Positions 10,732 to 58,234 of a stretch of DNA of 64,000 nucleotides are shown piece after piece. Below the pieces are notes generated by a model. That model was not told where the DNA came from, did no database searches, and saw nothing but the letters and a program-made list of their open reading frames with translations. The translations under genes and the position numbers were made by a program. Source of the stretch: a virus (taxonomy: Duplodnaviria > Caudoviricetes); IMG/VR virus record IMGVR_UViG_3300037755_000308, positions 3,061-67,060 of that record. One strand, written 5' to 3'. Numbering within the stretch: the stretch's first letter is position 1; each line of letters starts with the position of its first letter.

Positions 10732-10960
10732 CATTAAAAGAACGGTTGAGTTCGAGATACCAATCGGTGAATGGAAGCTTGTTATTAGCCAGTCTAGTAC
10801 AGATGATCTAGTCTGTCTAGACCTGTGTTGGAAGGACAAGCAATCATCCAAACATAGCACAGCTGTGAAGGTTGAAACCTTTCTGGCAATAGCAGATGCT
10901 CTGTCAGATAACATCCCATCAAGTGATGGTGATGATGGTGGTACCAATAACGATGATTGA
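10715..10960 (+). CDS. Hypothetical protein
   Basis: 81 aa ORF with RBS AGGAG. Confidence 0.5.
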   Translation: MSSTLDIKRTVEFEIPIGEWKLVISQSSTDDLVCLDLCWKDKQSSKHSTAVKVETFLAIADALSDNIPSSDGDDGGTNNDD

Positions 10961-11270
10961 GCTACCACACATAGAGGTGTATGATCAACGAGCTACACGG
11001 TATATATTCAGAGAGCGTTGTCACGAAATGTTGTCTACACTGTACTGGAGGGAGAAGCCCTACACAAAGTGTAAGCATACTGCAACACATAAAGTCAACG
11101 GCAAGCCACTCTGCAACTTACATGCAGGGCGATTTGCCCTTGAGTTTGTGGTAGCAAACCAGCCTAAGGAAGAGATAGAGGTACAGTCAAATGACCACCA
11201 GTGGCAACAGCATACACATGAGCACAAGTGGGGCAGAAGTGGAGGTGTACTACCGATACGAAAACCATAA
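10953..11270 (+). CDS. Hypothetical protein with a Cys/His cluster
   Basis: C...CKH...LCNLH pattern. Start moved to the ATG at 10953, which overlaps the previous stop. Confidence 0.5.
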   Translation: MIELPHIEVYDQRATRYIFRERCHEMLSTLYWREKPYTKCKHTATHKVNGKPLCNLHAGRFALEFVVANQPKEEIEVQSNDHQWQQHTHEHKWGRSGGVLPIRKP

Positions 11271-11658
11271 TGTGTCTCTGGAGGTAGACCCAGAAACTGG
11301 AGAGTCTCATGGACACGGTGTTCATGTTACTCTTGATGAGTATCTAGTACTCCGTCATACCCCAAAGGGTGTCTGGTTGGATATGGGGCAAATGGTAGGC
11401 AGGTTCGTAAGGTACGATGCTCGAAAGAAATTCGCACATCCAACAAGGGAAGAGGCGTTAAGTTCGTTTCAGGAAAGGAAGAGAAGACAGATCAAAATCC
11501 TTTCTGGACGTCTAAGAGATGCAAGAGCAGCGCTTACCATAGCGTGGCATACCACAACGACAGACGTCGATATTAGCGATGAAGCAGCTTTCGAGCGTGA
11601 GCTAGAGGCTAGTAAAGAGGAGCATCCATACGATGCTTTCTTTGACAATCAACGGTGA
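11191..11658 (+). CDS. Hypothetical protein
   Basis: 155 aa ORF with RBS GAGGT. The YYRYE...LRHTPKGVWL...RKKFAHPTREEALSSF..RK.RQI pattern is typical of phage early proteins. Confidence 0.6.
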   Translation: MTTSGNSIHMSTSGAEVEVYYRYENHNVSLEVDPETGESHGHGVHVTLDEYLVLRHTPKGVWLDMGQMVGRFVRYDARKKFAHPTREEALSSFQERKRRQIKILSGRLRDARAALTIAWHTTTTDVDISDEAAFERELEASKEEHPYDAFFDNQR

Positions 11659-27618: not shown

Positions 27619-30165
27619 ATGCAAAAGACCGGCAAAGGTACCATAATCATTGGTGGAAACGGGGGCGCTGGCACACACGAAGATGCTGGCGATGGCAATG
27701 GCGCTGGTGGTAAGGTGATAAGCGCACCTACGCCAACCTATTACTGCCTGTCCGAGCTGCAGGAAATGATGGGTGTTCAGCAAGCATTCTTTCCTCTGTT
27801 CCAAGAGACCGTTACTGACGATGTTTGGCAACTCAAGTACAAACGTCGTAATGAATTATCAATAAGTGAGACTCTGTCACGAGTAGCTGGAGCATTCGAA
27901 GTCTCTAACGGCAAAGACTTCAGTGCTGCTCTATACTGCTTGATGGCAATGGGTGTCTTCTTTCCTGCAGGTCGTGTTATAGCCGGCGCTGGTATTGATG
28001 AGCATGACTCTACGCTTATGAACTGTTACGTCATGGGGACCCTACCAGATTCATTGGACGGCATTTTTGATTGCCTGCATGAGTCAGCTAAGACTCAGAA
28101 ATATGGTGGAGGTATTGGCGTAGACTTTACTCCTCTACGTCCAAAGGGGGCTGAAGTCTCCACTGCAGCATTCTTTGCTGGCGGCTCAGTTGCCTTCATG
28201 GGCTTATGGGATGCTATGGGGCATGCCTTGGAATGTGGTGGTAACCGTCGTGGTGGGAAGATGGCTACACTAGCAGACCATCATCCTGACATACTGGAGT
28301 TTATCGAAGCTAAGTCCAAACGTGGTATGCTTACTTCATTCAATGTGTCTGTATTAATCTCTGACAAGTTCATGCAGGCTGTTGAGAATGATGAACCGTG
28401 GAATCTGTATCACACGTCACCCAAGAAGGGTATGATACATCGTACGTTCCAAGACGCTACAGGCACTTGGCAGTGCATCTGGGATACCATTCCAGCTCGT
28501 GAGCTCTGGGACGCTATCATGAAGAACACCTACTTATATTCCGAGCCAGGTGTTATCTTCATCGATCGAGTGAATGAAATGAATCCGCTGAATTACGCGG
28601 AAGTAATCAGATGCACGAATCCCTGTGCTGAGCAGCCACTGCCATCGTATGGTGCCTGTGATCTCGGACAAATCAACTTGGCTCGTCTTGTAACAAATCC
28701 GTTTCTCAGCAATGCTGGACTGAATATGAGATTGCTGGAGTATGCTGTCAAGATGGGTGTCAGAACCCTGGATGCTGTTCTTGATATTACCAAATACCCT
28801 CTGCACCAACAATACAAAGAGGCAATGAATAAGCGTCGCATTGGTCTTGGTATTACAGGTCTAGCGGACATGTTGACTATGCTTGGACTTAGCTACGATA
28901 GTGAACAAGCGAGGTCAGTAGTTCATAATGTTATGAGTCACATTGAAATGTGGGCGTACAAAGCGTCTATTGAACTTGCACAAGAGCGTGGAGCGTTTCC
29001 ATTGTTTAGTGTAGCGCATCACTTGGAAACAAAGTTCTCCAAGACACTGACAAAAGATATGCGTGAGCAGATCAGAGAGCACGGTCTACGTAATTCGCAT
29101 ATGCTCTCTATTGCACCTACTGGTACCGTCTCTATCCTCTTTGGTGATGTAAGTGGTGGTTGTGAACCTCACTTCCTGCATAAGATGAAACGTAAGATCA
29201 AGGTTAAAGACGAGAACAATAACGACGTATTCAAGTCCTATAACTCCTATAGCTATGCTGTACGTATGTACGCTCATGTGTATGGTATTGACCCTGAAAA
29301 GGTTTACCAAGAGATTCATACAGGTGACGAATGGTGTACAGCTGACACTATATTGCCTGATGATCATATAGCGATGCAGAGTGTAATTCAGAAGTACATT
29401 GATGCATCAATCTCCAAGACAGTCAACTGTCCTGAAGACATCCCCTTTAATGGGTTCAAGAGTGTCTATATGCATGCATTCAAAACTGGATGTAAAGGTT
29501 GTGCTACTTATCGACCCAGTGACGTTCGCGACGAGATCCTCAGCGCTGTCAAAGAGCCAGCGGCTGAGACAGAGGGAGAAGCAGCAGAGGCAGCTCTAAC
29601 ACTTGACTTTGCAGATGTGGTTACAATACCAGAGGTGATAACGCTTACACCAGACTATAAGCGTGAGGGTATGCTTCATGGTGTAACACACAAGTTGCGC
29701 TGGCCTGGATTATCCTCACCTGTGTTCGTTACCATCAATCATCTATCAGATGGCAAACCAGTTGAAGTGTTCATCTCTTCTAAGAATGATCACTACAATG
29801 AGTGGGCTGTAGCTATGTCAGTCATGATCTCCAAGCTGTTACAGGCTGGCGTCTCAGCTAATGAAGTTGGAGATCAACTTGGAGAGATCACCTTAAGCCA
29901 TAATGGTGCTTTCATGGATGAGCGTCATTATGGTTCTATCATTGCTAAGATTGGTGAGCTCATAAAGAATCATAGTTCATACAGTACGCCACTATTCAAA
30001 GTGAAAGCTCTAGCAACTCCACTAAGAGTTGTTGCTGCTGCTGCTGGCAATATTGCTGGTCGCAACAGTGTTAGTAACACCTGCACGTTCTGTGGCTCTC
30101 GTAACACACAATATAAGGAGGGATGTTTAACATGCATTGACTGTCACCAAAGCAAATGTGATTAG
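27619..30165 (+). CDS. nrdJ: Class II (adenosylcobalamin-dependent) ribonucleotide reductase with a C-terminal TSCPD-like domain and zinc ribbon
   Basis: PAGR, NCYV, GGGIGVDF, TNPCAEQPL, CDLG, RRIGLG, SIAPTGT, ISKTVN and C-terminal CTFC..GCLTC.DC..SKC. No separate beta-subunit gene. Confidence 0.9.
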   Translation: MQKTGKGTIIIGGNGGAGTHEDAGDGNGAGGKVISAPTPTYYCLSELQEMMGVQQAFFPLFQETVTDDVWQLKYKRRNELSISETLSRVAGAFEVSNGKDFSAALYCLMAMGVFFPAGRVIAGAGIDEHDSTLMNCYVMGTLPDSLDGIFDCLHESAKTQKYGGGIGVDFTPLRPKGAEVSTAAFFAGGSVAFMGLWDAMGHALECGGNRRGGKMATLADHHPDILEFIEAKSKRGMLTSFNVSVLISDKFMQAVENDEPWNLYHTSPKKGMIHRTFQDATGTWQCIWDTIPARELWDAIMKNTYLYSEPGVIFIDRVNEMNPLNYAEVIRCTNPCAEQPLPSYGACDLGQINLARLVTNPFLSNAGLNMRLLEYAVKMGVRTLDAVLDITKYPLHQQYKEAMNKRRIGLGITGLADMLTMLGLSYDSEQARSVVHNVMSHIEMWAYKASIELAQERGAFPLFSVAHHLETKFSKTLTKDMREQIREHGLRNSHMLSIAPTGTVSILFGDVSGGCEPHFLHKMKRKIKVKDENNNDVFKSYNSYSYAVRMYAHVYGIDPEKVYQEIHTGDEWCTADTILPDDHIAMQSVIQKYIDASISKTVNCPEDIPFNGFKSVYMHAFKTGCKGCATYRPSDVRDEILSAVKEPAAETEGEAAEAALTLDFADVVTIPEVITLTPDYKREGMLHGVTHKLRWPGLSSPVFVTINHLSDGKPVEVFISSKNDHYNEWAVAMSVMISKLLQAGVSANEVGDQLGEITLSHNGAFMDERHYGSIIAKIGELIKNHSSYSTPLFKVKALATPLRVVAAAAGNIAGRNSVSNTCTFCGSRNTQYKEGCLTCIDCHQSKCD

Positions 30166-31001: not shown

Positions 31002-31496
31002 ATGTTCATAAATCAAGCTATGTTCTCAAATCAAGCTGCGATGACGTTTATCTTGTTTGTAGTAATATTCAGCCTGATTATTTGTGCATTGATGATCATG
31101 GGTAAGATCAGATTCAAAGTCGTTAGAGAGATCTTCTACGACAGTCATAATGACGACAGTGACGACGCTGCTGATTATAGTGAAACTAGTGTGGCTGGTG
31201 GAGCTGGCAGTGACAGTCTATTATGTATGCCGAGTAGTACTGCTGGAGGTGGTGGTTCAGTAGACCCATCTGTTGTAGTTATCACTCGCGTTCATGGTAT
31301 AACAATTCCAGAGCATATTACTTCTTATGCTATACTCAATGATGGTGTATGGGAGTATTACAGTCGAAGTCATGGTTTGTTCGTATATCTTGATACGATA
31401 GTTCAGCACGATGATGGTACCTTTTGGGTACTAGAGTTGAAGGAAGCTGTTGACGTTCCAGTCGCTACCCCAGGTGGGGGATCACAATCGCGCTGA
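31002..31496 (+). CDS. Hypothetical membrane-anchored protein
   Basis: N-terminal TM helix and an acidic/Gly linker. RBS GGAG. Confidence 0.55.
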   Translation: MFINQAMFSNQAAMTFILFVVIFSLIICALMIMGKIRFKVVREIFYDSHNDDSDDAADYSETSVAGGAGSDSLLCMPSSTAGGGGSVDPSVVVITRVHGITIPEHITSYAILNDGVWEYYSRSHGLFVYLDTIVQHDDGTFWVLELKEAVDVPVATPGGGSQSR

Positions 31497-32493: not shown

Positions 32494-33501
32494 ATGACGA
32501 TCATTACTGCTCGGGTTATCAAAGACGCTGTCAATACTAACATGGATAGGTTGATTACACTTGAGTTGACCTATCCGAGGTTTATTCATGCTGAGCTTAT
32601 GACACACAGGGTATTCTCTCGGAACTCAGCTTCGTCGCGAGCTATACCAATTCACAGACAGTTGGACGCTATTAAAGGACATCCAGCCGAACCAGTTCAT
32701 TGGGGTGCTCATCAAAAAGGCATGCAGGCTGACCGAGAGCTTGAAGGTTGGAGACGTTTTGCTGCTCGTGCTGTCTGGCGTACACATCGGAGGTTTTCAT
32801 ACCACTGTGCCTATGCGCTATATAGATTTGGTGCACATAAACAGTTTGCCAATAGACTGACAGAACCTCACAGCCATATTAAGGTGCTTGTGACCTCAAC
32901 TAAATGGGCAAACTTCTTTGCTTTGCGTGCTCATTCAGCTGCTCAACCTGAATTCAGAGTACTTGCAGATGAGATTGCTATTGCCGTTGAGAGCAGCATG
33001 CCAGTACTACTCGAGAATGGTCAGTGGTATCTTCCATACATTACGGCATCTGATTACGAAGCTATTACAGGACACATCAGTGCTAATGGCATGGGTGGTT
33101 CTGGTGGTGGCAATGGTGGCACCACTGGTGGCACTTATGCACATATTGACCCAGTCAGACTTCACGAGCTTCGAGTACATGCTGCAATACGAGTGTCTGT
33201 AGCTCGGTGTGCACGTGTGTCGTTCACTACTGTTACAGACGACAGCGTCAAAAATGCACCTCCGTTCTATAATCTTGAACGTGATATGGATCTTGGTGAT
33301 CAGCTTATATCAGCAGACCCAATGCATGCCAGCCCACTAGAACATGTTGCTCAACCGGATCCTCAAGGCTTATACACGTCTCAGTGGGGAAACTTCCACG
33401 GCTGGATACAATATCGCAAGACGCGAAACAATGAAGCTAAGACTGACAGACGTTATAAGGGTAGCTACACACCTGCTAATAAGGGCAACGCACTACTTTA
33501 G
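32494..33501 (+). CDS. thyX: Flavin-dependent thymidylate synthase
   Basis: THRVFSRNSASSRA, HKQFANRL.EP, AQPE, SVARCARVS and HASPLEH. Confidence 0.92.
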   Translation: MTIITARVIKDAVNTNMDRLITLELTYPRFIHAELMTHRVFSRNSASSRAIPIHRQLDAIKGHPAEPVHWGAHQKGMQADRELEGWRRFAARAVWRTHRRFSYHCAYALYRFGAHKQFANRLTEPHSHIKVLVTSTKWANFFALRAHSAAQPEFRVLADEIAIAVESSMPVLLENGQWYLPYITASDYEAITGHISANGMGGSGGGNGGTTGGTYAHIDPVRLHELRVHAAIRVSVARCARVSFTTVTDDSVKNAPPFYNLERDMDLGDQLISADPMHASPLEHVAQPDPQGLYTSQWGNFHGWIQYRKTRNNEAKTDRRYKGSYTPANKGNALL

Positions 33502-33629: not shown

Positions 33630-33881
33630 CTAGCGCCCAGCAGGACTCGGGCTCCAACAACCTTGAATCTCACCATATTTATTATGGGCGGCGATCTGTA
33701 AGAACAGCTTGCGTGGTAACTTAGTGTCAGGAGCCATTATAATAGGTTCCCAACCGCTACAAACAAGTGGTTGAACAGCAAGACCAAAGCTACTCGCTGG
33801 TGTATTGCTGGCGCAGCCGCTCAAGCTCATCATCAGACATATTGCGAAGGTCTTGTTCAACCTGTTTTCTTGTAACTTCAT
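33630..33881 (-). CDS. Outer-membrane spanin (Rz1-like lipoprotein)
   Basis: Lipobox LSGC and two further Cys. Overlaps the i-spanin in another frame. Start moved to MKLQEN at 33881. Confidence 0.7.
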   Translation of the reverse strand: MKLQENRLNKTFAICLMMSLSGCASNTPASSFGLAVQPLVCSGWEPIIMAPDTKLPRKLFLQIAAHNKYGEIQGCWSPSPAGR

Positions 33882-34056
33882 TTTCGTAAGCCTTTTTATA
33901 AGTGCTTGCCTTAGCTTCTGCTTGTGCCTGATTGTATCCGGATCTCCTAAGTCCAAAGAAGGCACCAACTAAAGCTAACAAAGATACTAGAGCAGGGAGA
34001 ATAATACTACCCCCACCTGACAGGAAGCTAAGTAAGAAGGTGAAGATAGCTGTCAT
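33790..34056 (-). CDS. Inner-membrane spanin (Rz-like)
   Basis: N-terminal TM followed by a helical periplasmic domain; immediately follows the endolysin. Confidence 0.7.
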   Translation of the reverse strand: MTAIFTFLLSFLSGGGSIILPALVSLLALVGAFFGLRRSGYNQAQAEAKASTYKKAYENEVTRKQVEQDLRNMSDDELERLRQQYTSE

Positions 34057-35285
34057 TTCTTTGGCACCCCCTGCTCACGCTTACGGTCTTGCCACTTAGT
34101 CCAAATGACATACGCCCCGATAGCGATGACGATGAAGCCAAAGATTAGTAGCGCTCCACTAGCGCTGTCATTGACCTTCTGCACCTGTTCTGTTGCATCT
34201 CTTGCGGAGACAACCACTTCTCTAAGACCGCCAGACACACCCTGAAGGTCTTTGATTGAGTCGAGCACACTCTCAGCTTTGTCAATCTGTGCTGTAGTTC
34301 CATTGGTTGCATCCACCACACCTTTAGCAGCTGCTGCCACACCAGTTACTACTGCTGTAGCACCACCAATGTTGCGTTTGGACTCAAGCATTGAAGTTTC
34401 TGCAACTCGCTCAGCAGCTAGCCTCTCATAGGTTTGAGCACCAACGACTCCATCAACAACAATGCCCCACCTCTGCTGGAGTTTTCTGACAGCATCATCA
34501 GTTGCAGTACCAAAGATGCCATCTATAGTGACCGTCATGCCCTGCTTGTTAAGAAGCTTCTGCAAGGTTGTAACCTTTACACCCTGAGCACCTTTACGCA
34601 GAGTATGAGATATTAAGTCACGATAGTATCCAAGGAAACGGACGTCATATCCATGAGTACGAAATTGAGGTCCATTGTACTTGAAGAAAGCTGTATCCCA
34701 GTCCTTAGCGCGTAAGGCTGGAATAATACTACGCTTCGTTAAGAAACGCATAAAGCAGTCGAACTGATTTGCTTCAGACTCCAACATAAAGAGGATCATA
34801 TCCTCAACAGTGGAGAACCCAAGCATCTCATAGTTCTCGCCTAAGATCTGATACGCTCCCCAGGAGCATGCCATTAGAGCTGCTCGCTGATCGAGTATCA
34901 TAGCACGTTGTAGGCGATCGTACTGATGACCGCCTCCCGCACCATATAACGTACGGTCCCAACTGGATGAAGACAGAGTTGGATACTCTTCACTGAACCT
35001 GTTTTTCGGTTCAGTGTTTCTGGCAAATACATGAGCTTCGTATAAGATTGGCATTCTACCATCTGGCATGTACGCACCCTTAGGTGACTCTGTCAAAGCA
35101 AAAGCCTGCAGAGCCTCAGGCTCAATATTGTGCATACGAGCCGTCTCAATAAGGATCGCCGGATCCATACTTGGCATACCAGGATTGTAAAAATCCTCTA
35201 CTACAAGACCTTTAACACCTACATGTGCTTTTTCGGCAGGTGTTTGTTGGTCCCTAGTTTGTACTTCTTCAATTCTGCTCGCCAT
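34053..35285 (-). CDS. Endolysin: N-acetylmuramidase (DUF3380-like) + PG-binding domain + C-terminal membrane segment
   Basis: ES..G...ILYEAHVF, SWGAYQILGENY, YNGP, LRKGAQG..V..LQ.LL...DGIFG..T..AV..LQ...DGVVG, and a C-terminal hydrophobic helix. Confidence 0.88.
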   Translation of the reverse strand: MASRIEEVQTRDQQTPAEKAHVGVKGLVVEDFYNPGMPSMDPAILIETARMHNIEPEALQAFALTESPKGAYMPDGRMPILYEAHVFARNTEPKNRFSEEYPTLSSSSWDRTLYGAGGGHQYDRLQRAMILDQRAALMACSWGAYQILGENYEMLGFSTVEDMILFMLESEANQFDCFMRFLTKRSIIPALRAKDWDTAFFKYNGPQFRTHGYDVRFLGYYRDLISHTLRKGAQGVKVTTLQKLLNKQGMTVTIDGIFGTATDDAVRKLQQRWGIVVDGVVGAQTYERLAAERVAETSMLESKRNIGGATAVVTGVAAAAKGVVDATNGTTAQIDKAESVLDSIKDLQGVSGGLREVVVSARDATEQVQKVNDSASGALLIFGFIVIAIGAYVIWTKWQDRKREQGVPKK

Positions 35286-36135: not shown

Positions 36136-36315
36136 TTAAGAGAGTAGTTTTTGTATCAACTTCTCCACATAGTCCCATATAATGTACAATGATACTAGAC
36201 CACCAGATACGTAGCCAACCCAAAGTCTAACCGTGCTATGTAGCCAGCGAATTCTTTCTCTCGCTACTAGTATAGCACGTAGCTCTGCAACCTCATGTGG
36301 TGTAAGCGTAGTCAT
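36136..36315 (-). CDS. Small membrane protein, holin candidate
   Basis: MTTLTPHEVAELRAIL..RERIRWL...WVGYVSGGLVSLYIIW (59 aa, one TM) at the head of the lysis cassette. Confidence 0.5.
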   Translation of the reverse strand: MTTLTPHEVAELRAILVARERIRWLHSTVRLWVGYVSGGLVSLYIIWDYVEKLIQKLLS

Positions 36316-36450
36316 GTACTCTTCACGATCTTGCAAATGCGATGTAGGCTGTGGCTGTGGCTGTGGCACCTGATGTTTACTAACTGGTTTGATATTGTGT
36401 TCCCCATTCATTCAGGCCTCGAATTCTTGGTCTTATTGGACAGATATTAT

Positions 36451-37347
36451 TTAGCCTAGTCTACCCTTTATAGTAAGTTCCCCTTCCGGTGTGATTTCAG
36501 CTAGATCTCCAGTATCAAACACGCCATCAGTCACTCGCAAAGGTTGATCAGCATACTTGAGCGCAAGCCGATCATTCTTGACTATCACAGTTCCTCTAGG
36601 ACCTATTGACACACCGTCAGCCAGAGCTGTCTTTGATACGACAACACCGTTCTGAATGACATGTTTAGTCATGGCCAGAATGCCAGTCTCAGACGCACCA
36701 TAATGATCGTACACAACACGACCAGAGGATAGTAGAATTGATAATTCTTGCTCCTCCATTATTCTACCCATGCATATCACAGGTGCCTTGTCAGTAAGCA
36801 GGCCTCGACGAACGGCTTTTGATAATACGCCAGGATCTCCAACAACGAGATTATAGGTCTCAGGACGATTATCAAATCCATAGTAACACTCAATGCCTTT
36901 CCTAAGAAAGGAAAATCTAGCTGATGCCCAACCCAAAGAACTACGCCAGTTATGAACGTGCCATACAGGACCTTGAATCTCTCCAATCAAGGAAAGCCAA
37001 GCTTCAGATCTTCTAACAAACACGTCCCAAGGCGTTATTGTGCCTTTCGCTGTACCCGTAGTCCCCGATGAAGATATTATAATTCCAGGTACGAGTTCGT
37101 CGGTTACTAGAAATCCGTAAACAGAGCGGCTGTCAATAGGACCAACAGATACGATTTTACCTTCCTGAAACCCCTTAAGAACATCTTCATCATTCTCGGC
37201 TACGACGATGCCTTTGCGCGTCAAAGCATCAGGCATCAAATCCTCAATCGGTATCATATCCCCATCCGGGTGTACAAATCCAGACTCAGGATCCACAGCG
37301 ATTGTATTCAGAAATTTACCGTCCTTCACTAGTGCAAATCTAGCCAT
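36451..37347 (-). CDS. Truncated ANL-superfamily AMP-binding (adenylate-forming) domain protein in the tail module
   Basis: Core motifs A3 SSGTTGTAKG, A5 YGASETG, A7 FDTGDLA and A8 ELTIKGR, then a stop. The N-terminus MARFALVKDGKFLNTIAVD resembles small fibre-associated proteins. Confidence 0.8.
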   Translation of the reverse strand: MARFALVKDGKFLNTIAVDPESGFVHPDGDMIPIEDLMPDALTRKGIVVAENDEDVLKGFQEGKIVSVGPIDSRSVYGFLVTDELVPGIIISSSGTTGTAKGTITPWDVFVRRSEAWLSLIGEIQGPVWHVHNWRSSLGWASARFSFLRKGIECYYGFDNRPETYNLVVGDPGVLSKAVRRGLLTDKAPVICMGRIMEEQELSILLSSGRVVYDHYGASETGILAMTKHVIQNGVVVSKTALADGVSIGPRGTVIVKNDRLALKYADQPLRVTDGVFDTGDLAEITPEGELTIKGRLG

Positions 37348-37358
37348 TGTATCTTCCT

Positions 37359-38252
37359 CTAAGGCGCGGGTGCAACCGGATAGACAATTACATCCACACG
37401 ACCGTCAGCTCCGGAACCAGCCGTCGTTGTTTCACTTGTTCCTCCGCCACCGCCGGGTTGTACTCCATTCTCTCCCACCGCGGCGTTAAAGCCACCATCT
37501 CCCCCGTTACCCGCATTGATACTTATTCCGCCTGTTCCTGCTTGATCAACATCACCGCCGCCACCACCACCGCCTCCCCAGACTGAATCCCCGCCATTTA
37601 GAAATTCAGGATTAGAGTCCTGACTACCAGCGCCACCCCCTCCATGGTCGATTCCATCACCAGGAGGATTAACGGTAGTCCCCCCTGCACCAAGATATAT
37701 GGTCGAAAGTGAAATGATCCTGGGTTGAGCGAGCTGACCTAATGGACCACCAGCATCACCAGATCCTCCCTTCGTAGTGGCGCCCCCACCACCGTAACCC
37801 GTAAGATGTGAACCAAACGTAGTGTCACCGCCATTAGTCTCTGGAGCCCCTCCTCCACCAATCGTAACTGTTTCTGTTGATCCTAGCTCGCTAAGGAGCA
37901 TTCGTCTTTTAGATGAGCCGCCCCCTCCACCTCCTTTGCCTGAGCTCCCAGACGCAGTCTCACCGCCACCACCTGCACCAACCGCATAGATCTCGACAAT
38001 GCTGTTAGGACCAAAAGATTCATCCGTAGGCTTGTTCCACGTGCCGGAAGAATTGAATCTCTGAAAGTCAACTGCTCCTCCACCACCACTTGCAGGGTCT
38101 TCCCAAGTGGGTTGTTCACCTGCACCAGCACTAGTTAGAATTTGGCCTGTCTCACCTGGATCATCATCCGCAGTGATAACTGCTTTGACTTCTTCAACTG
38201 TACCGAAATCCCATCTGACTATATTACCATCTATAGGAACACGTCCTACCAT
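37359..38252 (-). CDS. Glycine-rich tail fibre / receptor-binding protein
   Basis: FNSSGTWNKP, VGAGGGG, TVTIGGGG, GGDTTFG, GGGGGG and GADGRV.V.VY motifs of the Gly-rich phage fibre domain. Confidence 0.8.
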   Translation of the reverse strand: MVGRVPIDGNIVRWDFGTVEEVKAVITADDDPGETGQILTSAGAGEQPTWEDPASGGGGAVDFQRFNSSGTWNKPTDESFGPNSIVEIYAVGAGGGGETASGSSGKGGGGGGSSKRRMLLSELGSTETVTIGGGGAPETNGGDTTFGSHLTGYGGGGATTKGGSGDAGGPLGQLAQPRIISLSTIYLGAGGTTVNPPGDGIDHGGGGAGSQDSNPEFLNGGDSVWGGGGGGGGDVDQAGTGGISINAGNGGDGGFNAAVGENGVQPGGGGGTSETTTAGSGADGRVDVIVYPVAPAP

Positions 38253-38273: not shown

Positions 38274-41042
38274 TTAGAAGGGGGCGAAGATGCCCTCACT
38301 ATCTGGATCTACTAGTTGTTCACCATCAGGATCGATAATAGGAACACGTATGGACTCATCTACTAGAGTTAGTGCCGCTGTATAGTCGCTCAACGGATCA
38401 ATTCCTAAAACTAGCATACGTTTCTCAACACCGGATAGAGGTCCGCAAGCAACTAGACAGTGCTCTTCCAAATTATCGTCAACAGGAATAGTGAACGGTG
38501 TTGCGAATGTTATTGTGTCTGTGTCTACTTCCTCATCGATCTCTTCAGTTATAGTCGTTCCATCTTTGAGTTGTATCACAACTCCTGCAGGATAATCTGA
38601 TGGATCTCCTAGTGAGCCAATTAAGGATAGACGTAGAGGCGCGTCCAGTGTAAGACCTGTGACATCTCCTCCAGAGGTTTGCACTGACACAACTCTAGCT
38701 GCATCATAGTGACGCGCTAGAGTATCGTATACCAACGCTACTAGAGACCCTTTGACACAGTACAAATTCTCAATGTCAACTTCGTGGCTGTATAGACGTC
38801 CTCTCTGAAGTAGTTGACCCAAGTCCAGATAAGCTCGATCAATTACTTGTGACGTATTAGTTATGCCTAGATAGGATATAGCTTCAATATTCAATGGTAC
38901 AGTGGACAAAGCCTTACGATAAACAAAGATCTCTTCAGGTTCGTAATCATTGTCCTCGTTATTGAATCTTACACGAAGTCCATCAGGGATACGAGGAAAC
39001 GCCCTTCTGATAGTGAGACCACGAGCATTACGTTGTGTGAACAACTGTATAGGAGATTCAGCACTACGGTCTCTATCAATAACTACCCCTATCTTGTCTG
39101 ACATACGTACTGCAGCTCTACCACATGCACCTACTATGCGAAGTACTTCACCAATGCTTCTGCTTGTATTAAAGAATGCATTGCATTCATAGACTCGTTC
39201 ATCAACACTACCTTCACAAAAATCAAACCAGTCTGTTAGACTGTCATCATCGAGTTGTGCCTCAATAAATGTAGCTCTAGCACTCTGTCCACCAAGAGCA
39301 AGAAATCTCCACCATGCAGCAGGATTGTTAGTGGGTTCGAAAGTATCCCAATCATTACCATCCCAAGTATTTGCATATCCCGTTGCAATAGTTGTTAATG
39401 AGTTAATAGCAATATTCTTAGCCTTAATTGCAATCAGAGATAGACCAGTTTCCTTTAGAGGTGGTTCATCCCATACACTCGATATGGATTGCAACCCTAT
39501 TTGAGTGGCAAGCTTTGCCTGCTCCTGTCTAATAGCAGGAGGAGATGAAGCTGGTATATGTGAAAAGAAGTACGGAATCTCAGTCAAGTACGTATATGCA
39601 GAAGGAATAAAATCACTCACAATGTATCCATACCCACGCTTAACCTGTATATCATAAGTACCCAGAGGGAACACTTCTGGGTCTAAGAAGATAACAGCTA
39701 CACCATCTTCAGACGATACATTATCAGCATTGTTACCTGATTCTAAATCGAAGTATTCATCTACCTCGAATAATTCGTCATTGTCTGTATCCGTAAGATA
39801 TAAAGCATGACTCCATGGTGGAACAGTTACATCTTGATCAAGTCGGGTTAGTGCCGGACCAGCAGCTTGAAATCTTAACTTAATCATACCACGGAAAGCT
39901 TCAAGACGTTCTCTCTGAACGTGAAACTCAGGTAGGTTAATCCATGTTATCTCACCAGCACGACGTATACGAATACGAAGTGGTGTACCAGCTCGAGCAG
40001 TACCTTCATCAGTCTGTGCGACTAGAGCCGACCATCCAAACTGCAACCATATCTCATCAGGTACTGTGCGACTACGTACACCATGCCACCTCGGATATGA
40101 AAGAGAAGGAGTTGTTAAATTTTGCAGCTCGTCCGTAGCATCGTCATTAATTTTATGCGCTGAAACTGCAATACCTGCTTGATTCTCATACACCTGTTGA
40201 GTTATAAGAGTGACTGGGGTGTCATCGTTAACAACATCTCTGACTTCAAATTCAATCTCATCTGCGTCGAAGTCTCCAATAGGAGCATTGTTGACACGTA
40301 TGTCATTGAAATCATGTGCCCCATTCAGTCCGACAATAGCGTACACAAACTGGTCATCGTTAACACTCTCAGTCCAAGGTAATATTAGATGTGGTGGTGA
40401 GACACGGTGAGTACCTGCTACAAAGGGGATTGCACCAAATGGTTCAAGTACATTGCCCTGAATCGAAGCAGCTCCCAGTTCTGCCTTCTTACCTCCATCT
40501 TCTTCTTGTGTCTGTGTGTCAGCTGCAGTAGGCGCTAGTGCGTTGAGTGCTAAAGCACCAACAACCGATACGCCAGCAGCTAAGAGTGCAGCAGAAGTCG
40601 AGCCGGCAGCAAATAGTGTGCCAGATATTGATAATGCACCTGCCGGCCCAAGGATGCCCCCACTAATAGCAGTTACTGCAACGACCAGTGCAATGGCAGC
40701 AATTGTAGTGAAGATGTTCTTGCCACCTCCACCACCACCTCCAGCTAGCTTGACACCCACATAAATAAGATGACGTGTACCTGGTTTGGGTTTAACACGA
40801 GACCACCATTCTCGAGGAACTTCAATGCCTCCTACTTGCACAACTCCATGTGTCCAAATTTCAGGAGGCAGATCAGGAATGTCACCTAAGATGTCAGCTA
40901 TAGACTGTCCAGGCCGAGCATGATATTCTGAAGTAGCTAACTTAAAGGGCGATGGGCGCAATATAACGGGCATAGCCAGAGGTGTGACCAATAATGGTTG
41001 GAGTTCAATATTGTTGGTAGTAGTCACACGATCTTTAAGCAT
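38274..41042 (-). CDS. Tail tip / central host-specificity protein (lambda J-like)
   Basis: 922 aa. GGGGK...AAIALV, N...PFGAIPFVAGTHR.SPP, TNNPAAW, LDD..L.DW..FC and PDGLRVRF.N...Y. Confidence 0.82.
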   Translation of the reverse strand: MLKDRVTTTNNIELQPLLVTPLAMPVILRPSPFKLATSEYHARPGQSIADILGDIPDLPPEIWTHGVVQVGGIEVPREWWSRVKPKPGTRHLIYVGVKLAGGGGGGGKNIFTTIAAIALVVAVTAISGGILGPAGALSISGTLFAAGSTSAALLAAGVSVVGALALNALAPTAADTQTQEEDGGKKAELGAASIQGNVLEPFGAIPFVAGTHRVSPPHLILPWTESVNDDQFVYAIVGLNGAHDFNDIRVNNAPIGDFDADEIEFEVRDVVNDDTPVTLITQQVYENQAGIAVSAHKINDDATDELQNLTTPSLSYPRWHGVRSRTVPDEIWLQFGWSALVAQTDEGTARAGTPLRIRIRRAGEITWINLPEFHVQRERLEAFRGMIKLRFQAAGPALTRLDQDVTVPPWSHALYLTDTDNDELFEVDEYFDLESGNNADNVSSEDGVAVIFLDPEVFPLGTYDIQVKRGYGYIVSDFIPSAYTYLTEIPYFFSHIPASSPPAIRQEQAKLATQIGLQSISSVWDEPPLKETGLSLIAIKAKNIAINSLTTIATGYANTWDGNDWDTFEPTNNPAAWWRFLALGGQSARATFIEAQLDDDSLTDWFDFCEGSVDERVYECNAFFNTSRSIGEVLRIVGACGRAAVRMSDKIGVVIDRDRSAESPIQLFTQRNARGLTIRRAFPRIPDGLRVRFNNEDNDYEPEEIFVYRKALSTVPLNIEAISYLGITNTSQVIDRAYLDLGQLLQRGRLYSHEVDIENLYCVKGSLVALVYDTLARHYDAARVVSVQTSGGDVTGLTLDAPLRLSLIGSLGDPSDYPAGVVIQLKDGTTITEEIDEEVDTDTITFATPFTIPVDDNLEEHCLVACGPLSGVEKRMLVLGIDPLSDYTAALTLVDESIRVPIIDPDGEQLVDPDSEGIFAPF

Positions 41043-42396: not shown

Positions 42397-45222
42397 CTAT
42401 ACCCTCCTTCTAGTAGGTGACAGCCCAAACCTAGTCAGAGGTCCATCAAATCCTCCACTGGCTACACTCTCCTTAACTGTACCAATAAGTAGCTTGACAA
42501 TCTCTCTATTACCAGACTTTGAACGTTCTTCCCTTACAGGAGCACCAGTGTAATTGAAGATCTGAACCTGTGTCTGTGAACCGCTACCACCTCCACCAAC
42601 TGCTCTGACTCCAAGGTCTCCACTTGATGAGCGTACTAGAGGCATGACTGCTTCTGTACCAGCTTCTCCACCAATAGCAGGACCGCTTGAAGTTCTAAAC
42701 AGTGTTGGCTTGTTGAGAATATCACCTTGAGCCATAAAGCGTACACCGTTATTGAATGCACCTCCCTTAGCAAATCCAGGACCACCAAAGCTAAGAGAGG
42801 GTAGTGGAGTAGCACCTCCAAATAGGGAATTCATAATTGGGTTGATAACAGCAAGGCGTAATATCTGCTGGATGATCTGACTTGCCATATCCTTGACAAT
42901 GTCAACAAAGGCATCAGCTTCTAACTTGCCGTTGACCAATGCATCTGCAAGTGCTTTGCCAGTAGAGTTGAAAGCTTCTACCATAGTGTCTCTAAGACCT
43001 GTAGCTAGTTGCTGCAGACCAGCAAACACACCTTCAGAGATCTTACGGTTATGTTCCAAAGCAAATGAATACTGATCGATCTTGACTTTGATAATATCAG
43101 CTGCAACACCAGCATCTGTTAGTCGGTCTTTCATAGCCGAGATCTTCTTATTGAACTCCTCTTGCTTTTCAAAGGCTGCAAACACTGCAGGGCCTTGCAT
43201 CATAGCTGCATTAGCACGAAGTAATCCGTCAATAGCTTGAGTAGCCTCACGAATGGCTTTTGCAGCTCGGTCATTCTCATCGCCGTCAAGAATACCACCA
43301 GGAGCGATAGGTGTCTCTCTGATCTTCTTCAACTTCTCAAGACGATCTGTCTGTTCACTGATAGACGCATTCATCTCGTCGATCTGGTTCTTGAAACCTT
43401 GCTCGACACTTGTCATACGAAGGCCAACACCACTTTCCTTTGACTCACTACCTGGATCAATCTGCACAAGGAACTTCTGTGTGTTCTCATGCATTAACCT
43501 AAGCGCATCATTATTTCTAATCTGCTCCAGGTACAATATCTGATAGGCTCTCAGTGCAGACTTAGTAGCAGCGATCTCATGTTGCATTGCTGCAATTTTG
43601 AGTTCAGCTGCTTTGACAAAGTCATTAGCAGTAGAACTGACAGTCTTGCCTAATTGCTCTTGTGACTCAATGAGTGCGTCTGACTTCTCTTTCATCTCAT
43701 CTTCTGCAGTAGCAGCTTCCGCTACAGAAGAACCAAACAACTTGACAGCTAGTGTTGCACCACCAATAATTGCAACTAGGCGTATAGCAACCGATAGAAC
43801 ACCAAGGAACGGATTAGCTGCCATTGCAACATTAAGACCAATGAATGCAATTGCAGCTGTCCTAATTGCAGCTGTCAAAGAGATGAACATGCGTATGAGT
43901 GACGGCAGTGCTAGTAATGAAAGTCCACCAGCTAGCCCACCAATGATAGCTGACACAACTAGAATGTTCTCACCAAGTGACCGTATCACACTAGTTAGAG
44001 CTTCAACACCAGACTTGAATGCAGCTGAAATACCAAATGCTCTATCAAACTCAGTATTGAAGATCGTATAGGAGTTTGTCAGGCGATTGACAGACGCTCT
44101 CAACGAATCAACGGCGTCCCCAGCATCTCCTGCCAATCTCTTTCTGACCTGTTGTGAGAAGGGTAGTAAGAACTGTTCAGATGCAACTTTGCCTCTCTTC
44201 AGTAGTTTGTTGAACTCTGCAGTTGTGACACCCATTGCATCTGCAGCGGCTTTAAAGGCACCAGGTAGACGATCACCAAGTTGCTGACGAATTTCTTCTG
44301 CAGCGACCGTGCCTTTCGACATGATCTGTTCAAGTGCTCTGAACACACCTTCAGCTGAGACTGCATCCAACTGGAAGTTACCAATTGCATGAGCCATATT
44401 CTCGAAGATCTCTCGAGCCTTGTCACCCTCTAGTGATGTTCCTTGTGCAGCGGCTTGGAACCGGGTGAACTGGTCTGCCAGAGTAACAAACTCAATGCCT
44501 GTTACATCAGCTAACCTTTGCAGGTTGTTAAATTCAATCTCAGCAAGTTCAACTGCACCAGTTGTTGACTTTAATCGAGCTTCAATACGTTGAATGTCAA
44601 AAGCCGTTTTAACTGCTGCTGTTGACAGTTTTGTTACGACAAGACCAGCAGCAATAACACCACCAATAAAGGCAGCAAGTGCTACACCTGATCTATTAGC
44701 AACTGCACCAAGTGCTGCCACCCTAGCACCGACACCAGACAGAGGACCTACAGCGAGTACCGAAGCTGAAGCCATATCACGGAGGAATTCACCAAAAGCT
44801 GTGTGCCCTTGTCTCCGCTGTGCTTCTGCTGCCCGCAACGCTTGTATGCGCCTCTGAACGGTAGACATGCTAGCACCGAACGCCTCGTTGGCTCTTTGGT
44901 ATGCTAGAGTTGTCCGCTGCCCCATAGTCATCTGTTGGCTCAGACGATTAAAGGCTCTGGTTGTTCTGTCAATAAGTTGTGCTTGCTCATTACCACCAGC
45001 AGTTCTGCGGATCATTTCGTTGACACGCAGTGTAGCTTGTAATGCGCGAACAGAAGCAGCTTCCTGACGTCGCATAGCAGCTTCGTGACGTCTAGCATTG
45101 TTACCAGTGGCTTGAGCTGCTCTGTCAACAGCTTGTCCAAATCGAACTACACGACTAGTAGCTTCTTGAAGCCGACGAGTGTCAACACCTAACCCAAATT
45201 GTACTTGTCCTAGATTAAGCAT
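42397..45222 (-). CDS. Tail tape measure protein
   Basis: 941 aa, Ala-rich helical. Tape-measure core ALEQIMSKGTVAAEEIRQQLGDRLPGA and C-terminal GGAF...GEAG.EA.MPL. Confidence 0.92.
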   Translation of the reverse strand: MLNLGQVQFGLGVDTRRLQEATSRVVRFGQAVDRAAQATGNNARRHEAAMRRQEAASVRALQATLRVNEMIRRTAGGNEQAQLIDRTTRAFNRLSQQMTMGQRTTLAYQRANEAFGASMSTVQRRIQALRAAEAQRRQGHTAFGEFLRDMASASVLAVGPLSGVGARVAALGAVANRSGVALAAFIGGVIAAGLVVTKLSTAAVKTAFDIQRIEARLKSTTGAVELAEIEFNNLQRLADVTGIEFVTLADQFTRFQAAAQGTSLEGDKAREIFENMAHAIGNFQLDAVSAEGVFRALEQIMSKGTVAAEEIRQQLGDRLPGAFKAAADAMGVTTAEFNKLLKRGKVASEQFLLPFSQQVRKRLAGDAGDAVDSLRASVNRLTNSYTIFNTEFDRAFGISAAFKSGVEALTSVIRSLGENILVVSAIIGGLAGGLSLLALPSLIRMFISLTAAIRTAAIAFIGLNVAMAANPFLGVLSVAIRLVAIIGGATLAVKLFGSSVAEAATAEDEMKEKSDALIESQEQLGKTVSSTANDFVKAAELKIAAMQHEIAATKSALRAYQILYLEQIRNNDALRLMHENTQKFLVQIDPGSESKESGVGLRMTSVEQGFKNQIDEMNASISEQTDRLEKLKKIRETPIAPGGILDGDENDRAAKAIREATQAIDGLLRANAAMMQGPAVFAAFEKQEEFNKKISAMKDRLTDAGVAADIIKVKIDQYSFALEHNRKISEGVFAGLQQLATGLRDTMVEAFNSTGKALADALVNGKLEADAFVDIVKDMASQIIQQILRLAVINPIMNSLFGGATPLPSLSFGGPGFAKGGAFNNGVRFMAQGDILNKPTLFRTSSGPAIGGEAGTEAVMPLVRSSSGDLGVRAVGGGGSGSQTQVQIFNYTGAPVREERSKSGNREIVKLLIGTVKESVASGGFDGPLTRFGLSPTRRRV

Positions 45223-51537: not shown

Positions 51538-52569
51538 TTACTCGGAGTAGTGAACGATACCAGACTGGCCAGATTGGTCAGACTTCATGCGCGGAAGCAT
51601 GATAGCCATAACCTTGAACATCATCTGGAAGCCACCCTTCTCGTCCCACTGGACAACAGTCGGCTGCATGCCGTTGACGAGATCGACGACATCACGAGTC
51701 ATCTGTACTGTAACAACTTCCGTAGCAGCAAGATTGTCAGCAGGAGCAACAGTCTCGAGCGAAGGAATGGCATTCAGACGTTCCAGAGTCGTACGATCAC
51801 TCTCCGCTTTGTAATCATCGGCGAGATTCACGAACGCGAGCGCTGGCACATATGTGGTATATGGACCAAACATATGATCACCGTGAAGCACACCGATCAT
51901 CTCAATCTGGTCCTGTACAATCTCTATGCCGGTCGTACCAATGTCTGACCACGAACCAGTAAGAGAACCAGTATTACGGTTCAGAGCATTCGTATAACCG
52001 AAGATCGAACCGTTTGCACCGACACTGTAGCCGCCGTTGCAAATAAGATCCTCGATCTTCTCAGACACCAGCCGACCTGCAAGTGCAACCTGAGTTGTGT
52101 CCAAAGACTCACCCGTCTCGCGCGAAGCTGCCAACGCACGAATGTTGATGGAGAAGTCTTTGTGGATGATCGGGATAGGCATCCCAGTCAGCTCGAAATT
52201 GACCCGATCTTCTTCAGCCTGAGTAAGACCAGACATGTTGATCTCAGCTTCAGTCATATCAGAGACCGTCTCCCACTCCAACCGCGTTTTGCCCATGGCG
52301 TTGCGGAGGTTGTGGGTAAGTCCACGAGACATCAGGTCGCCAGCAAGACGAAGTCTCTGACGGGCAATTTCGATAAGAGCATTGTCGAGCGAGATCCATT
52401 CATCCTTACGCAACGTCGCGTTCGTACGAAGAACCTTCGCATTGAAGTTCGACAGCAGAAGTCGCTGAGCCAAAGTCCCAAGAGAAGCAGACGTCTTGAA
52501 ACCACCATTACCATTGAGTGTCAAGAAGTCTACGCTCGTTGGACCGCCGGCCGAAATGATTGATTCCAT
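51538..52569 (-). CDS. Major capsid protein (HK97 fold, encapsulin-like branch)
   Basis: 343 aa with highly expressed codon bias. LRKDEW..LD...P.PIIHKDF.IN.R.L.ASR. Follows the protease and decoration genes. Confidence 0.88.
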   Translation of the reverse strand: MESIISAGGPTSVDFLTLNGNGGFKTSASLGTLAQRLLLSNFNAKVLRTNATLRKDEWISLDNALIEIARQRLRLAGDLMSRGLTHNLRNAMGKTRLEWETVSDMTEAEINMSGLTQAEEDRVNFELTGMPIPIIHKDFSINIRALAASRETGESLDTTQVALAGRLVSEKIEDLICNGGYSVGANGSIFGYTNALNRNTGSLTGSWSDIGTTGIEIVQDQIEMIGVLHGDHMFGPYTTYVPALAFVNLADDYKAESDRTTLERLNAIPSLETVAPADNLAATEVVTVQMTRDVVDLVNGMQPTVVQWDEKGGFQMMFKVMAIMLPRMKSDQSGQSGIVHYSE

Positions 52570-56677: not shown

Positions 56678-58234
56678 TTAGTGATACTTCTTAGGAACTA
56701 TTAAACCCGAACTCCCTCGCCTGCCCCATATAACGCCACTATTGCCGGATCGAGTGCCTCTTACGGTATTTACACTGTCGCCAGGTGCGGTAGTGGTAGT
56801 GGTAGCTCCTGTACCTGCTGGAGTACGACCCCAAGTTGCGCTTAACTTGGTTATACCGATCATCTTGTTCCAAGCTATTGCAACACAATCGATCTGATCA
56901 TCATATTCAGCATTAGGGAAGCCATCAAATTCGTTTGCAAAGCAGTCATTCCACTGTGCGTACTTAAGGATCAGATCGCCTCTTTCAGCACCTGCAAGCA
57001 TACCATGCGCCTTAGCCGATTTACCAGTAAGCTCAGGAATGCCAAGTACAGTATATCCGTACAATTCCTTCTGTTTTAACAGCTTCTTGAAGTGATTGGT
57101 AGTAATAATCCCACTAGCACCTGGCTCTTGAGCAATTAAGATTAAGCAATGTGGCCCATCAGCTCGAGCTGTTTCTACAAACAAAGTATCGACGTCATCA
57201 GGTGTCCACTGACCGCGTACAATGTCCGTTATGAAAGCCTGCTTCTTTTCTTTGTTGGCACCCATTTTAAGACCACAAGTATAATCCCCTGTTTTCTTAA
57301 GACCACCAAAGTCCCATGCTCGACACCAATCGAGTGTATTAGGAGCTGGAACGGTATGAATGTATTGTAGCCATTCCTTGTTGGCCATACGTGATTCATC
57401 ATCACGGGGGTCTTGTTGATAGAGTGCAGAGAACCAAAATGAGCCAAGCATACGCTTAATGCCCAGTAGAGCGTCTAGATCATACCGTTCCGGGAATAGT
57501 GCCTCACCAACATTGCGCCCCAATGGGTCATTTGACTCCGCAATAGCTGGTAGCTTGATATAGGTCCACAAGCCAGGCTGTTCCTTTAATAGACGCCCGA
57601 TAAGATCATCACCATGCCAGCGAGTCGCAATAATAATGACGGTTGCACCTGGTTCAAGACGAGTGAACGCTGTTGTGACGAACCAATCCCACAGTTGTTG
57701 ACGATATACTGGAGACAGAGCCTCTTTGAGTTGCTTGATATAGTCGTCAAGGAAGAAGAGGTTGAAGCCACGACCTGTCATTGCACCGCCAACACCGAAG
57801 GCCATAACGCCTCCATCTGTCTCGGTGAGGAATTTGTCAATACGATTGGAGCCCTGACGGATCCTTGTCTCTAGCTTATCTGGATTCCTTTCAATCTGAT
57901 CGCGTACAGCTTGACTAAAATCCTTTGATAGTTCAGCTCCATAGGTGCACAGACCAATATTGTAGCCAGGAAAGTTCTCCAACCCCCAAGTTGTGCCACC
58001 AATACTAAGCATCCGTGACTTACCATGGCGAGGTGGCATTGACAATATATACCGTCCACCACCCCTTTTAATACCAGTGGCCATCAGTGTAGAAATGTAC
58101 AGCAGATGTTTAGCCGGTATATACAGTGGATCAAGATGGAGCGCTAGCGTAGCAGGAGTTAGCTTCGGGTTGAAGTTTCTTAGTGCTGACTCTCGCACAC
58201 TTTGTTGTCTGCCTAAGCCCAGGTCTATTGCCAT
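56678..58234 (-). CDS. terL: Terminase large subunit
   Basis: Walker A MPPRHGKS, GGAMTGRG, Walker B LDDYIK, ATRWH..DL.G, RAWDF and DDQID. Confidence 0.93.
   Translation of the reverse strand: MAIDLGLGRQQSVRESALRNFNPKLTPATLALHLDPLYIPAKHLLYISTLMATGIKRGGGRYILSMPPRHGKSRMLSIGGTTWGLENFPGYNIGLCTYGAELSKDFSQAVRDQIERNPDKLETRIRQGSNRIDKFLTETDGGVMAFGVGGAMTGRGFNLFFLDDYIKQLKEALSPVYRQQLWDWFVTTAFTRLEPGATVIIIATRWHGDDLIGRLLKEQPGLWTYIKLPAIAESNDPLGRNVGEALFPERYDLDALLGIKRMLGSFWFSALYQQDPRDDESRMANKEWLQYIHTVPAPNTLDWCRAWDFGGLKKTGDYTCGLKMGANKEKKQAFITDIVRGQWTPDDVDTLFVETARADGPHCLILIAQEPGASGIITTNHFKKLLKQKELYGYTVLGIPELTGKSAKAHGMLAGAERGDLILKYAQWNDCFANEFDGFPNAEYDDQIDCVAIAWNKMIGITKLSATWGRTPAGTGATTTTTAPGDSVNTVRGTRSGNSGVIWGRRGSSGLIVPKKYH

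Follow-up and report, generated by a model that had tools for sequence, protein, structure and literature searches.

The window analysed here comprises 64,000 of the 67,060 bases of IMG/VR virus record IMGVR_UViG_3300037755_000308 (Duplodnaviria; Caudoviricetes), which is rated complete by CheckV. On its minus strand, at 36451-37347, lies a gene for a protein of 298 amino acids (aa), which we call mini-ANL. The protein is a true member of the ANL superfamily of adenylate-forming enzymes, a compact form of the N-terminal core domain (Acore) that ends at the GRxD hinge, and its gene directly follows that of a glycine-rich (Gly-rich) fibre-type protein. The best explanation that we can give, held tentatively, is that mini-ANL is a natural Acore-only ANL, fused to a fibre-binding module of ~45 residues and acting by adenylation at the fibre. 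The architecture of the protein is well supported, while its chemistry is inferred from sequence features.

The mini-ANL open reading frame (ORF) runs from an ATG to a TAA codon. The ATG lies 11 bp beyond the TAG stop codon of the Gly-rich gene, and the gap contains an AGGAAG Shine–Dalgarno (SD) sequence. Translation of the coordinates places the core motifs in the order found in ANL enzymes, all on the minus strand: the A3 P-loop SSGTTGTAKG at residues 93-102 (37042-37071), A5 YGASETG at residues 216-222 (36682-36702), A7 FDTGD at residues 277-281 (36505-36519), and ELTIKGR, the start of A8 and the hinge, at residues 290-296 (36460-36480). In the ANL framework, A8 begins with the GRxD hinge (PMC11253843); in mini-ANL, the GR is followed only by L, G and the TAA codon, and the protein ends two residues past it. 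The ordered motifs, the stop three codons after the GR and the 11-bp gap had all been picked out in a first-pass annotation made from the sequence alone, and all three hold. The protein can be divided into an N-terminal module (N-module), comprising residues 1-45 (37213-37347, minus strand; a β-hairpin, MARFALVKDGKFLNTIAVDPESGFVHPDGDMIP), and the compact Acore domain, comprising residues 46-298 (36454-37212, minus strand).

The homology of mini-ANL to ANL enzymes is real yet remote. Its weak NCBIfam matches were ANL families in 12 of 12 cases, all in register, the best being MenE (TIGR01923, E = 3.8e-5), and the weak matches of the single sequence to PDB sequences were also ANLs. A profile built from the four core members of the family (mini-ANL and the three full-length relatives described below) gave 18 matches to PDB sequences, all of them ANLs; the best was FadD13 (E = 8.6e-6), in an alignment that begins shortly ahead of the P-loop and reaches the hinge (87-296 to 174-413). 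With two short cousins added, the six-member profile gave 100 matches, with E = 9.4e-13. Since the NCBIfam and family-profile matches were all to ANLs, the motifs are not due to chance. A PHROG search with the mini-ANL sequence gave no match.

Structure prediction led to the same assignment. A single-sequence AlphaFold2 (AF2) model of mini-ANL was unusable (pLDDT 38), and a model made with a 51-sequence alignment reached a pLDDT of 93.9 and a pTM of 0.89. Foldseek returned at least 500 matches to this model, and among the matches listed all were ANL enzymes. By VIA-align, residues 46-298 superimposed on chain residues of about 55-411 with Z = 19.7 and a root-mean-square deviation of 3.1 Å over 245 aligned residues. 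Because the AF2 alignment included canonical ANLs, we also used the ESM Atlas model, which is made without a multiple sequence alignment (pTM 0.77); this model had TM-scores of 0.69-0.72 to AMP-binding clusters over residues ~40-298. The fold matched is that of Acore, defined by two β-sheets plus a distorted barrel, in a domain reduced by ~100 residues. The ANL core read from motifs in the first pass thus gained significant family-profile and fold matches.

Compared with the Acore of canonical ANLs (FadD13, MenE, MatB, 4-chlorobenzoate-CoA ligase and DltA), mini-ANL shares the fold (Z 18-20), the position of the hinge and the order of motifs (A2-like, A3, A5, A6, A7, A8). It ends exactly where artificial N-domain constructs of FadD13 (1-396/398) and PqsA end. 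Unlike canonical enzymes such as Mycobacterium tuberculosis FadD13, it lacks the C-terminal subdomain (Asub) with A9 and the A10 Lys, its Acore is ~100 residues shorter, mainly between A2 and A3, and a phage fibre-accessory module takes the place of the first ~50 residues. It also lacks the P-loop Pro and the A4 His, and it is located in a phage tail operon.

To look for relatives, phmmer was run exhaustively over 1.84 billion cluster representatives (~15 billion proteins). Only three full-length relatives were found, of 298, 301 and 300 aa with 39, 32 and 30% identity to mini-ANL, followed by two shorter ANL-only cousins, P0005 (247 aa) and P0006 (283 aa), and then by ordinary ANLs. The fused form is thus extremely rare, with four clusters in the whole set. 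The four core proteins (298-301 aa) align end to end with 45 invariant positions. All six short ANLs stop at or just after the A8 glycine, with the sole exception of P0006, which has a tail of ~30 residues beyond it. Although the other five are only 24-39% identical to the window protein, P-loop residues S94, G95, T96, T97, G98 and K101 are invariant in all six, as are the family-specific P106, W107 and R113 just after the P-loop, T279 and D281 of A7, G295 of A8, and a few glycines and prolines; R296 is present in five of the six. Only the window protein and the two cousins have a canonical A5. The GC content of the gene (45%) and at third codon positions (GC3, 36%) is the same as in the neighbouring tail genes. 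Mini-ANL is a conserved short form, not a product of decay.

Other searches added no further members. A k-mer-based homologue search with mini-ANL found only itself, tblastn of the whole protein against 50,697 phage records and blastn of the 8-kb region against phages gave no match, and a search of viral contigs for related loci yielded either no usable pattern or no confirmed relative. The tblastn matches of P0005 and P0006 were host-type MenE/EntF genes and one scaffold, none of them a mini-ANL. This scaffold (L075; MT839182.1, "Bacteriophage sp.", 4.5 kb, from a human faecal sample) consists of high-GC DNA with a canonical full-length FadD-type acyl-CoA synthetase, and is probably bacterial rather than phage.

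The two cousins belong with a set of short ANL-only phage proteins that includes two ESM Atlas clusters, automatically named "AMP-binding protein" (228-236 aa, with 53 and 132 members, 80-97% viral). Like mini-ANL, these proteins have no C-terminal subdomain, beginning near A2 and finishing at the hinge, and P0005 and P0006 also follow a Gly-rich gene. They differ from mini-ANL in having no N-module (which in locus L005 has its own gene downstream) and more canonical motifs (TSGTTGxPK, YGSAE/YGATE), and in passing the Pfam AMP-binding threshold.

The link to the fibre is seen first in the gene order. In all six loci with a readable upstream gene (the window, L001/L002, L004 and L005, and as partial ORFs L003 and L007), the gene directly upstream of the short ANL encodes a Gly-rich protein. 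These upstream genes match PF21722 with E values of 1e-6 to 4e-11, and their Gly-rich domains are 41-46% identical across loci. In the window, no promoter-like or terminator-like site was found on the coding strand between the J-like tail fibre gene, the Gly-rich gene and the mini-ANL gene. The mini-ANL gene thus stands as a fibre chaperone gene would, directly 3′ of a fibre gene, with an SD sequence in the short gap and no terminator between. The synteny with Gly-rich fibre genes, for which the first-pass annotation had proposed a survey of homologues, is therefore conserved.

The loci also differ in ways that concern the Gly-rich protein and the genes beside it. The Gly-rich relatives in L001, L004 and L005 (376-383 aa) have an N-terminal domain of ~85 residues that is absent from the Gly-rich protein of the window (297 aa). 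A gene for a Gp80-type fibre monomer (PF23140; PMC13730344) precedes the Gly-rich gene in L001; in the window, the Gly-rich gene comes directly after the J-like gene, without such a monomer gene. Downstream of mini-ANL, the core loci have a gene for a 91-93-aa coiled-coil and transmembrane protein and then a Phage_holin_10 gene. L004 carries in addition, between mini-ANL and the 93-aa and holin genes of the phage late operon, a full-length MfnB-like 4-HFC-P synthase of 239 aa (10916-11635; PF04476, E = 2.5e-75). This enzyme of the methanofuran pathway is not one usually seen in phages. Its gene may be an auxiliary metabolic gene; a chemical link to the ANL is the other possibility.

A second link is provided by the N-module. 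In L005, the Gly-rich gene is followed by the unfused mini-ANL P0005 and then by a separate 143-aa protein, P0085, starting MAKKRYAVVVDGRVVNRIVVDEG. When the core mini-ANL family was compared with P0085 by hhalign, columns 3-49 aligned to 5-56 with 93.3% probability and E = 2.7e-7. In Brevundimonas phage Domovoi, the gene of a 306-aa Gly-rich protein overlaps by ATGA the next gene, whose 161-aa product starts MRHALIRDDQVVNIILCGPEF; the start of this protein 3′ of the Gly-rich gene is also given as MRHALIRDDQVVNII. The match to Domovoi came from a tblastn search of phage records with the N-terminal 50 residues of mini-ANL, which gave only non-significant matches (E 0.6-6) or none, and it is informative only because of its genomic context. 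Caulobacter phages also gave matches; in one of them, CcrMagneto, the flanking genes are all annotated as hypothetical.

We then surveyed 63 IMG/VR loci (L012-L074) that encode relatives of the Gly-rich protein. No mini-ANL was present among them. The downstream ORF was readable in 50 loci, and in 41 of these it was a small ORF (55-190 aa) directly 3′ of the Gly-rich gene, representing 35 unique proteins. From these, 19 of the 35 join a single profile, built without mini-ANL sequences, with an N-terminus of the type ALIxxxxVxNVI...W.PP.G...GD.WDG..F and lengths of 65-186 aa. This profile recognises P0085 (E = 1.7e-10) and the Domovoi protein (E = 2.8e-4). Against the N-termini of the mini-ANLs, it was not significant by HMMER (E 0.5-2.7), with the match in the correct place and near the top rank, while hhalign aligned the profile to the mini-ANL family with 72-88% probability. 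The small proteins, which are probably fibre chaperones, have no Pfam family and only weak matches to phrog_18617, a 75-aa family without assigned function that also matches three of the four mini-ANL N-termini (best E = 0.0037). A widespread, unnamed protein family, made up of small proteins encoded after Gly_rich_2 fibre genes, is defined by the survey.

Taken together, residues ~1-45 of mini-ANL are a separate module whose sequence is homologous to the N-terminus of these small post-fibre proteins, the homology being confined to this part of the protein. The resemblance of the first ~40 residues to such proteins, suspected at the first pass, is thereby upheld. A free N-module ORF is absent from the window and from L001-L004, where the module is fused, and one is present in L005, where it is not. 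This complementary distribution marks a fusion of the Rosetta stone type that ties mini-ANL functionally to the fibre-accessory protein. In the ESM Atlas, the structural neighbours of residues 1-39 were small viral proteins and one Caudo_TAP cluster (TM-score 0.56 over 39 residues, a lead only). The Caudo_TAP profile PF02413 gave no match at E ≤ 10 to the N-terminal 60 residues of any member, and a search for short proteins related to residues 1-75 of mini-ANL, limited by its k-mer filter, found none.

A third link comes from complex modelling. The 1:1 model of mini-ANL with the Gly-rich protein gave ipSAE values of 0.80, 0.78 and 0.80, compared with 0.00 for the best of three controls. The ipSAE mark used is reached by 58 of 80 solved complexes and by 2 of 110 mismatched pairs, counts that apply only roughly here since custom four-row alignments were used. 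The runs agreed in at least 73% of contacts, and the pLDDT of the partner was at least 86. The contacts with the lowest predicted error are between mini-ANL residues 14-18, in the N-module hairpin, and Gly-rich residues 130-135 (in the invariant ETVTIGGGG), 69 and 283-284. Residues 70-74, 131-136, 157-159, 172-177 and 198-201 of the ANL core also touch the Gly-rich protein in the model. We know of no solved complex of a Gly-rich protein of this kind with an ANL, and a Gly-rich profile found no relative among PDB sequences, so it is unlikely that the score reflects a memorised structure. The pairing, which the first pass had proposed to model with the Gly-rich protein as a trimer, supports docking of mini-ANL on the Gly-rich protein, mainly via the N-module. 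The earlier suggestion of a fibre-assembly/ANL fusion accordingly stands for its architecture, through the hhalign result, the synteny and the predicted docking; its chemical part is taken up in what follows.

In the mechanism that we favour, the mini-ANL gene would be transcribed together with the Gly-rich fibre gene, probably with translational coupling. Through its N-module hairpin, the protein would dock on the Gly-rich domain at the invariant strand ETVTIGGGG, and the ANL core would thereby be held against the fibre protein. The core retains the ATP-contacting motifs of the N-domain (the P-loop, A5, the A7 Asp and the A8 Arg); it would bind ATP and most likely form the adenylate of a carboxylate. 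With one such event for each copy of the fibre, the adenylate would serve stoichiometrically to modify or mature either the fibre itself or a molecule that the fibre holds, and a docked protein acceptor would make the CoA- or carrier-handling C-terminal subdomain dispensable. From its conserved motifs, mini-ANL probably binds ATP; whether it goes on to form an adenylate is close to an even call, tilting slightly towards no. Catalysis is favoured by the retention of the P-loop, the A7 Asp and the A8 Gly (mostly Gly-Arg) at only 24-39% identity. It is also favoured by precedents among engineered proteins: artificial Acore-only constructs of PqsA and NpsA have been crystallised, and the ligands listed for the entries are an acyl-adenylate and an acyl-AMS analogue, respectively (PMC11253843). 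A more specific version, in which fibre-docked mini-ANL performs ATP-dependent covalent chemistry on the Gly-rich receptor-binding protein itself, with the docked substrate replacing both the C-terminal subdomain and the carrier, is unlikely on present evidence. In such chemistry, an activated acid could be used to acylate the fibre, or a fibre carboxylate could be adenylated and then form an amide or isopeptide bond.

Several observations weigh against adenylation at the fibre. The single mini-ANL sequence scores only 9.3 bits against the Pfam AMP-binding profile (PF00501), far below the curated cut-off of 29.9, and the confident AF2 model was made with an alignment that contained canonical ANLs. 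By VIA-align, ~100 canonical Acore residues are absent, and an acyl pocket of the usual kind may therefore be lacking. The A10 lysine, which stabilises the adenylation half-reaction (PMC11253843), is lost together with A9 and the rest of Asub. The lack of this subdomain, reported at the first pass, is confirmed by the end of the protein, by the ends of its relatives, 2-5 residues past the GR, and by the lack of any match to AMP-binding_C (PF13193) across the whole 67-kb phage record. The close relatives have a degenerate A5 (YASSEAG, YSSTEAG and MASSDGG, with Thr changed to Ala or Gly in all three, Glu to Asp in one and Tyr to Met in one), and the family has lost the P-loop Pro and does not conserve the A4 His. 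The named interface of the complex model leaves out the P-loop, A5, A7 and A8, so that no fibre residue is located in the active site and the ATP face is open.

Two other components were looked for in the phage. The carrier protein profile PP-binding (PF00550) had no match. The downstream 91-aa protein was considered as a C-terminal subdomain supplied in trans and was rejected: it gave no match to Pfam and seems to be anchored in the membrane, and the corresponding proteins of L001-L004 consist of a coiled coil and a transmembrane segment.

The strongest competing explanation, which we consider rather unlikely while giving it real weight, is that mini-ANL is a pseudo-enzyme, in which the ANL core has been exapted as the bulky, non-catalytic body of a fibre-assembly protein. 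The core would then stand where the usual small accessory protein has its helical C-terminal part, and any bound nucleotide would only stabilise it or time its release from the folded fibre. This agrees with the place of mini-ANL in the chaperone slot, with its N-module, with an interface predicted to consist of the N-module and surfaces away from the active site, and with the loss of A10 and the degeneration of A5, A4 and the P-loop Pro in relatives. There is also an analogy with Pam3 gp25, a modular chaperone of a Gly-rich fibre that has a fibre-binding N-domain and a separate C-domain (PMC9608196). However, conservation of the SGTTG..K P-loop, the A7 T.D and the A8 G(R) at 24-39% identity would be unusual for a dead site, and in L005 the ANL has not replaced the small accessory protein, which is present next to it in complete form.

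Alternatively, mini-ANL might stay on the Gly-rich fibre tip in the virion, serving there as an adhesin or sensing ATP or a carboxylate ligand, in the way that gp38-type adhesins remain on T2/S16-type fibres. Docking on the Gly-rich domain is predicted to be stable, and the gene is the last of the tail module before the lysis genes, both of which would suit a distal virion component. Such a role is nevertheless improbable, since the homologous N-module belongs to small proteins of the chaperone slot, extracellular ATP is scarce, and in Pam3 the chaperone has to dissociate, since the receptor-binding loops are covered by it (PMC9608196).

We consider it equally improbable that mini-ANL is an unrelated moron or auxiliary metabolic gene, activating a small-molecule acid for host metabolism or for modification of the envelope, at a tail-lysis junction that tolerates cargo. 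The MfnB-like 4-HFC-P synthase in L004 shows that this junction can carry small-molecule enzymes. However, the linkage to a Gly-rich gene is kept by deeply diverged loci in 6 of 6 cases, mini-ANL carries a fused fibre-accessory module and passes the docking prediction, and the phage encodes neither a carrier protein nor a C-terminal subdomain. Finally, a decayed, functionless fragment of a host acyl-CoA synthetase gene, suggested by the short length and sub-threshold Pfam score, is scarcely credible and is contradicted by the conservation pattern: four phage lineages keep a length of 298-301 aa and align from end to end, sharing 30-39% identity and 45 invariant positions, composition is native, the model is confident and compact, and length, conservation and synteny are all kept, unlike the decayed host fragments without fibre synteny that the first pass had set against its own reading.

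Adenylation at the fibre, our preferred reading, would set mini-ANL apart from the known chaperones of Gly-rich fibres (Pam3 gp25, T4-type gp38/gp57A and Tfa/Caudo_TAP). As with these, its gene lies directly after the fibre gene. The chaperones are modular, with an N-terminal fibre-binding part, and mini-ANL is similarly built, with docking predicted by the model. In contrast to them, its body is an enzyme fold of the ATP-using type, not a helical trimerisation domain, and it has no PF02413 match. To our knowledge, no tail-fibre chaperone is nucleotide-dependent, and we know of no ANL enzyme in virion assembly. In the literature searched, no paper linked AMP-binding or ANL proteins to phage tail fibres or placed an ANL in the fibre-chaperone slot, in agreement with the first-pass remark that no tail module of this kind had been described. 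What was known is the ANL superfamily and the short viral AMP-binding clusters; what is new is the fusion of an Acore-only ANL to a fibre-accessory module in a tail operon.

The mini-ANL gene is the final gene of a siphovirus-type structural module on the minus strand of the window, ahead of the lysis genes. The module includes the large terminase (56678-58234), the major capsid protein (51538-52569), the tape measure (42397-45222), three minor tail proteins listed between the tape measure and the J-like gene, the J-like central tail fibre or tip protein (38274-41042; phrog_31), the Gly_rich_2 fibre-type protein that is the conserved upstream and predicted binding partner (37359-38252; PF21722, phrog_863), and mini-ANL itself. 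These are followed, still on the minus strand, by the 91-aa protein with a C-terminal hydrophobic segment (36136-36411), for which an ORF of the same size is found in the same place in L001-L004, then by a 294-aa ORF and a muramidase endolysin (34053-35285). The window DNA was found in one DNA sequencing run (a sediment metagenome, possibly the source sample), and no RNA run was listed.

The 91-93-aa protein, a coiled coil with a C-terminal transmembrane segment, is always located 3′ of a fused mini-ANL (window, 36136-36411; L001, 4622-4897; L003, 1145-1420; L004, 11650-11931) and precedes a Phage_holin_10 gene in the three relatives. The window copy is very divergent, with 13-19% identity to its counterparts, and carries a PQPQPQP linker. 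The endolysin combines a muramidase domain with PG_binding_1 and a C-terminal hydrophobic segment. Just downstream of it, at 33630-34056, lies what looks like a spanin pair, made up of two small ORFs that overlap, one of which has a lipobox-like LSGC. Short glycine-rich stretches also occur within otherwise ordinary proteins of the window: a ribonucleotide-reductase-like ORF (27619-30165; N-terminal stretch GGNGGAGTHEDAGDGNGAGG), a 164-aa ORF (31002-31496) and a ThyX-like ORF (32494-33501; GMGGSGGGNGGTTGG).

The window thus holds a natural Acore-only ANL with three ties to a Gly-rich receptor-binding protein: the fusion, the conserved synteny and the predicted docking. If covalent chemistry on the fibre is true, mini-ANL would be the first adenylate-forming enzyme in virion assembly and would define a new class of protein-directed ANL. 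If the protein is active, it would represent a new post-translational step in the building of phage receptor-binding proteins, with a bearing on host range and fibre engineering, and a minimal ANL of ~250 residues that works without domain alternation, with a bearing on the evolution of adenylating enzymes and on enzyme design. If it is inactive, it would be a clear case of an enzyme fold recruited as the body of a chaperone.

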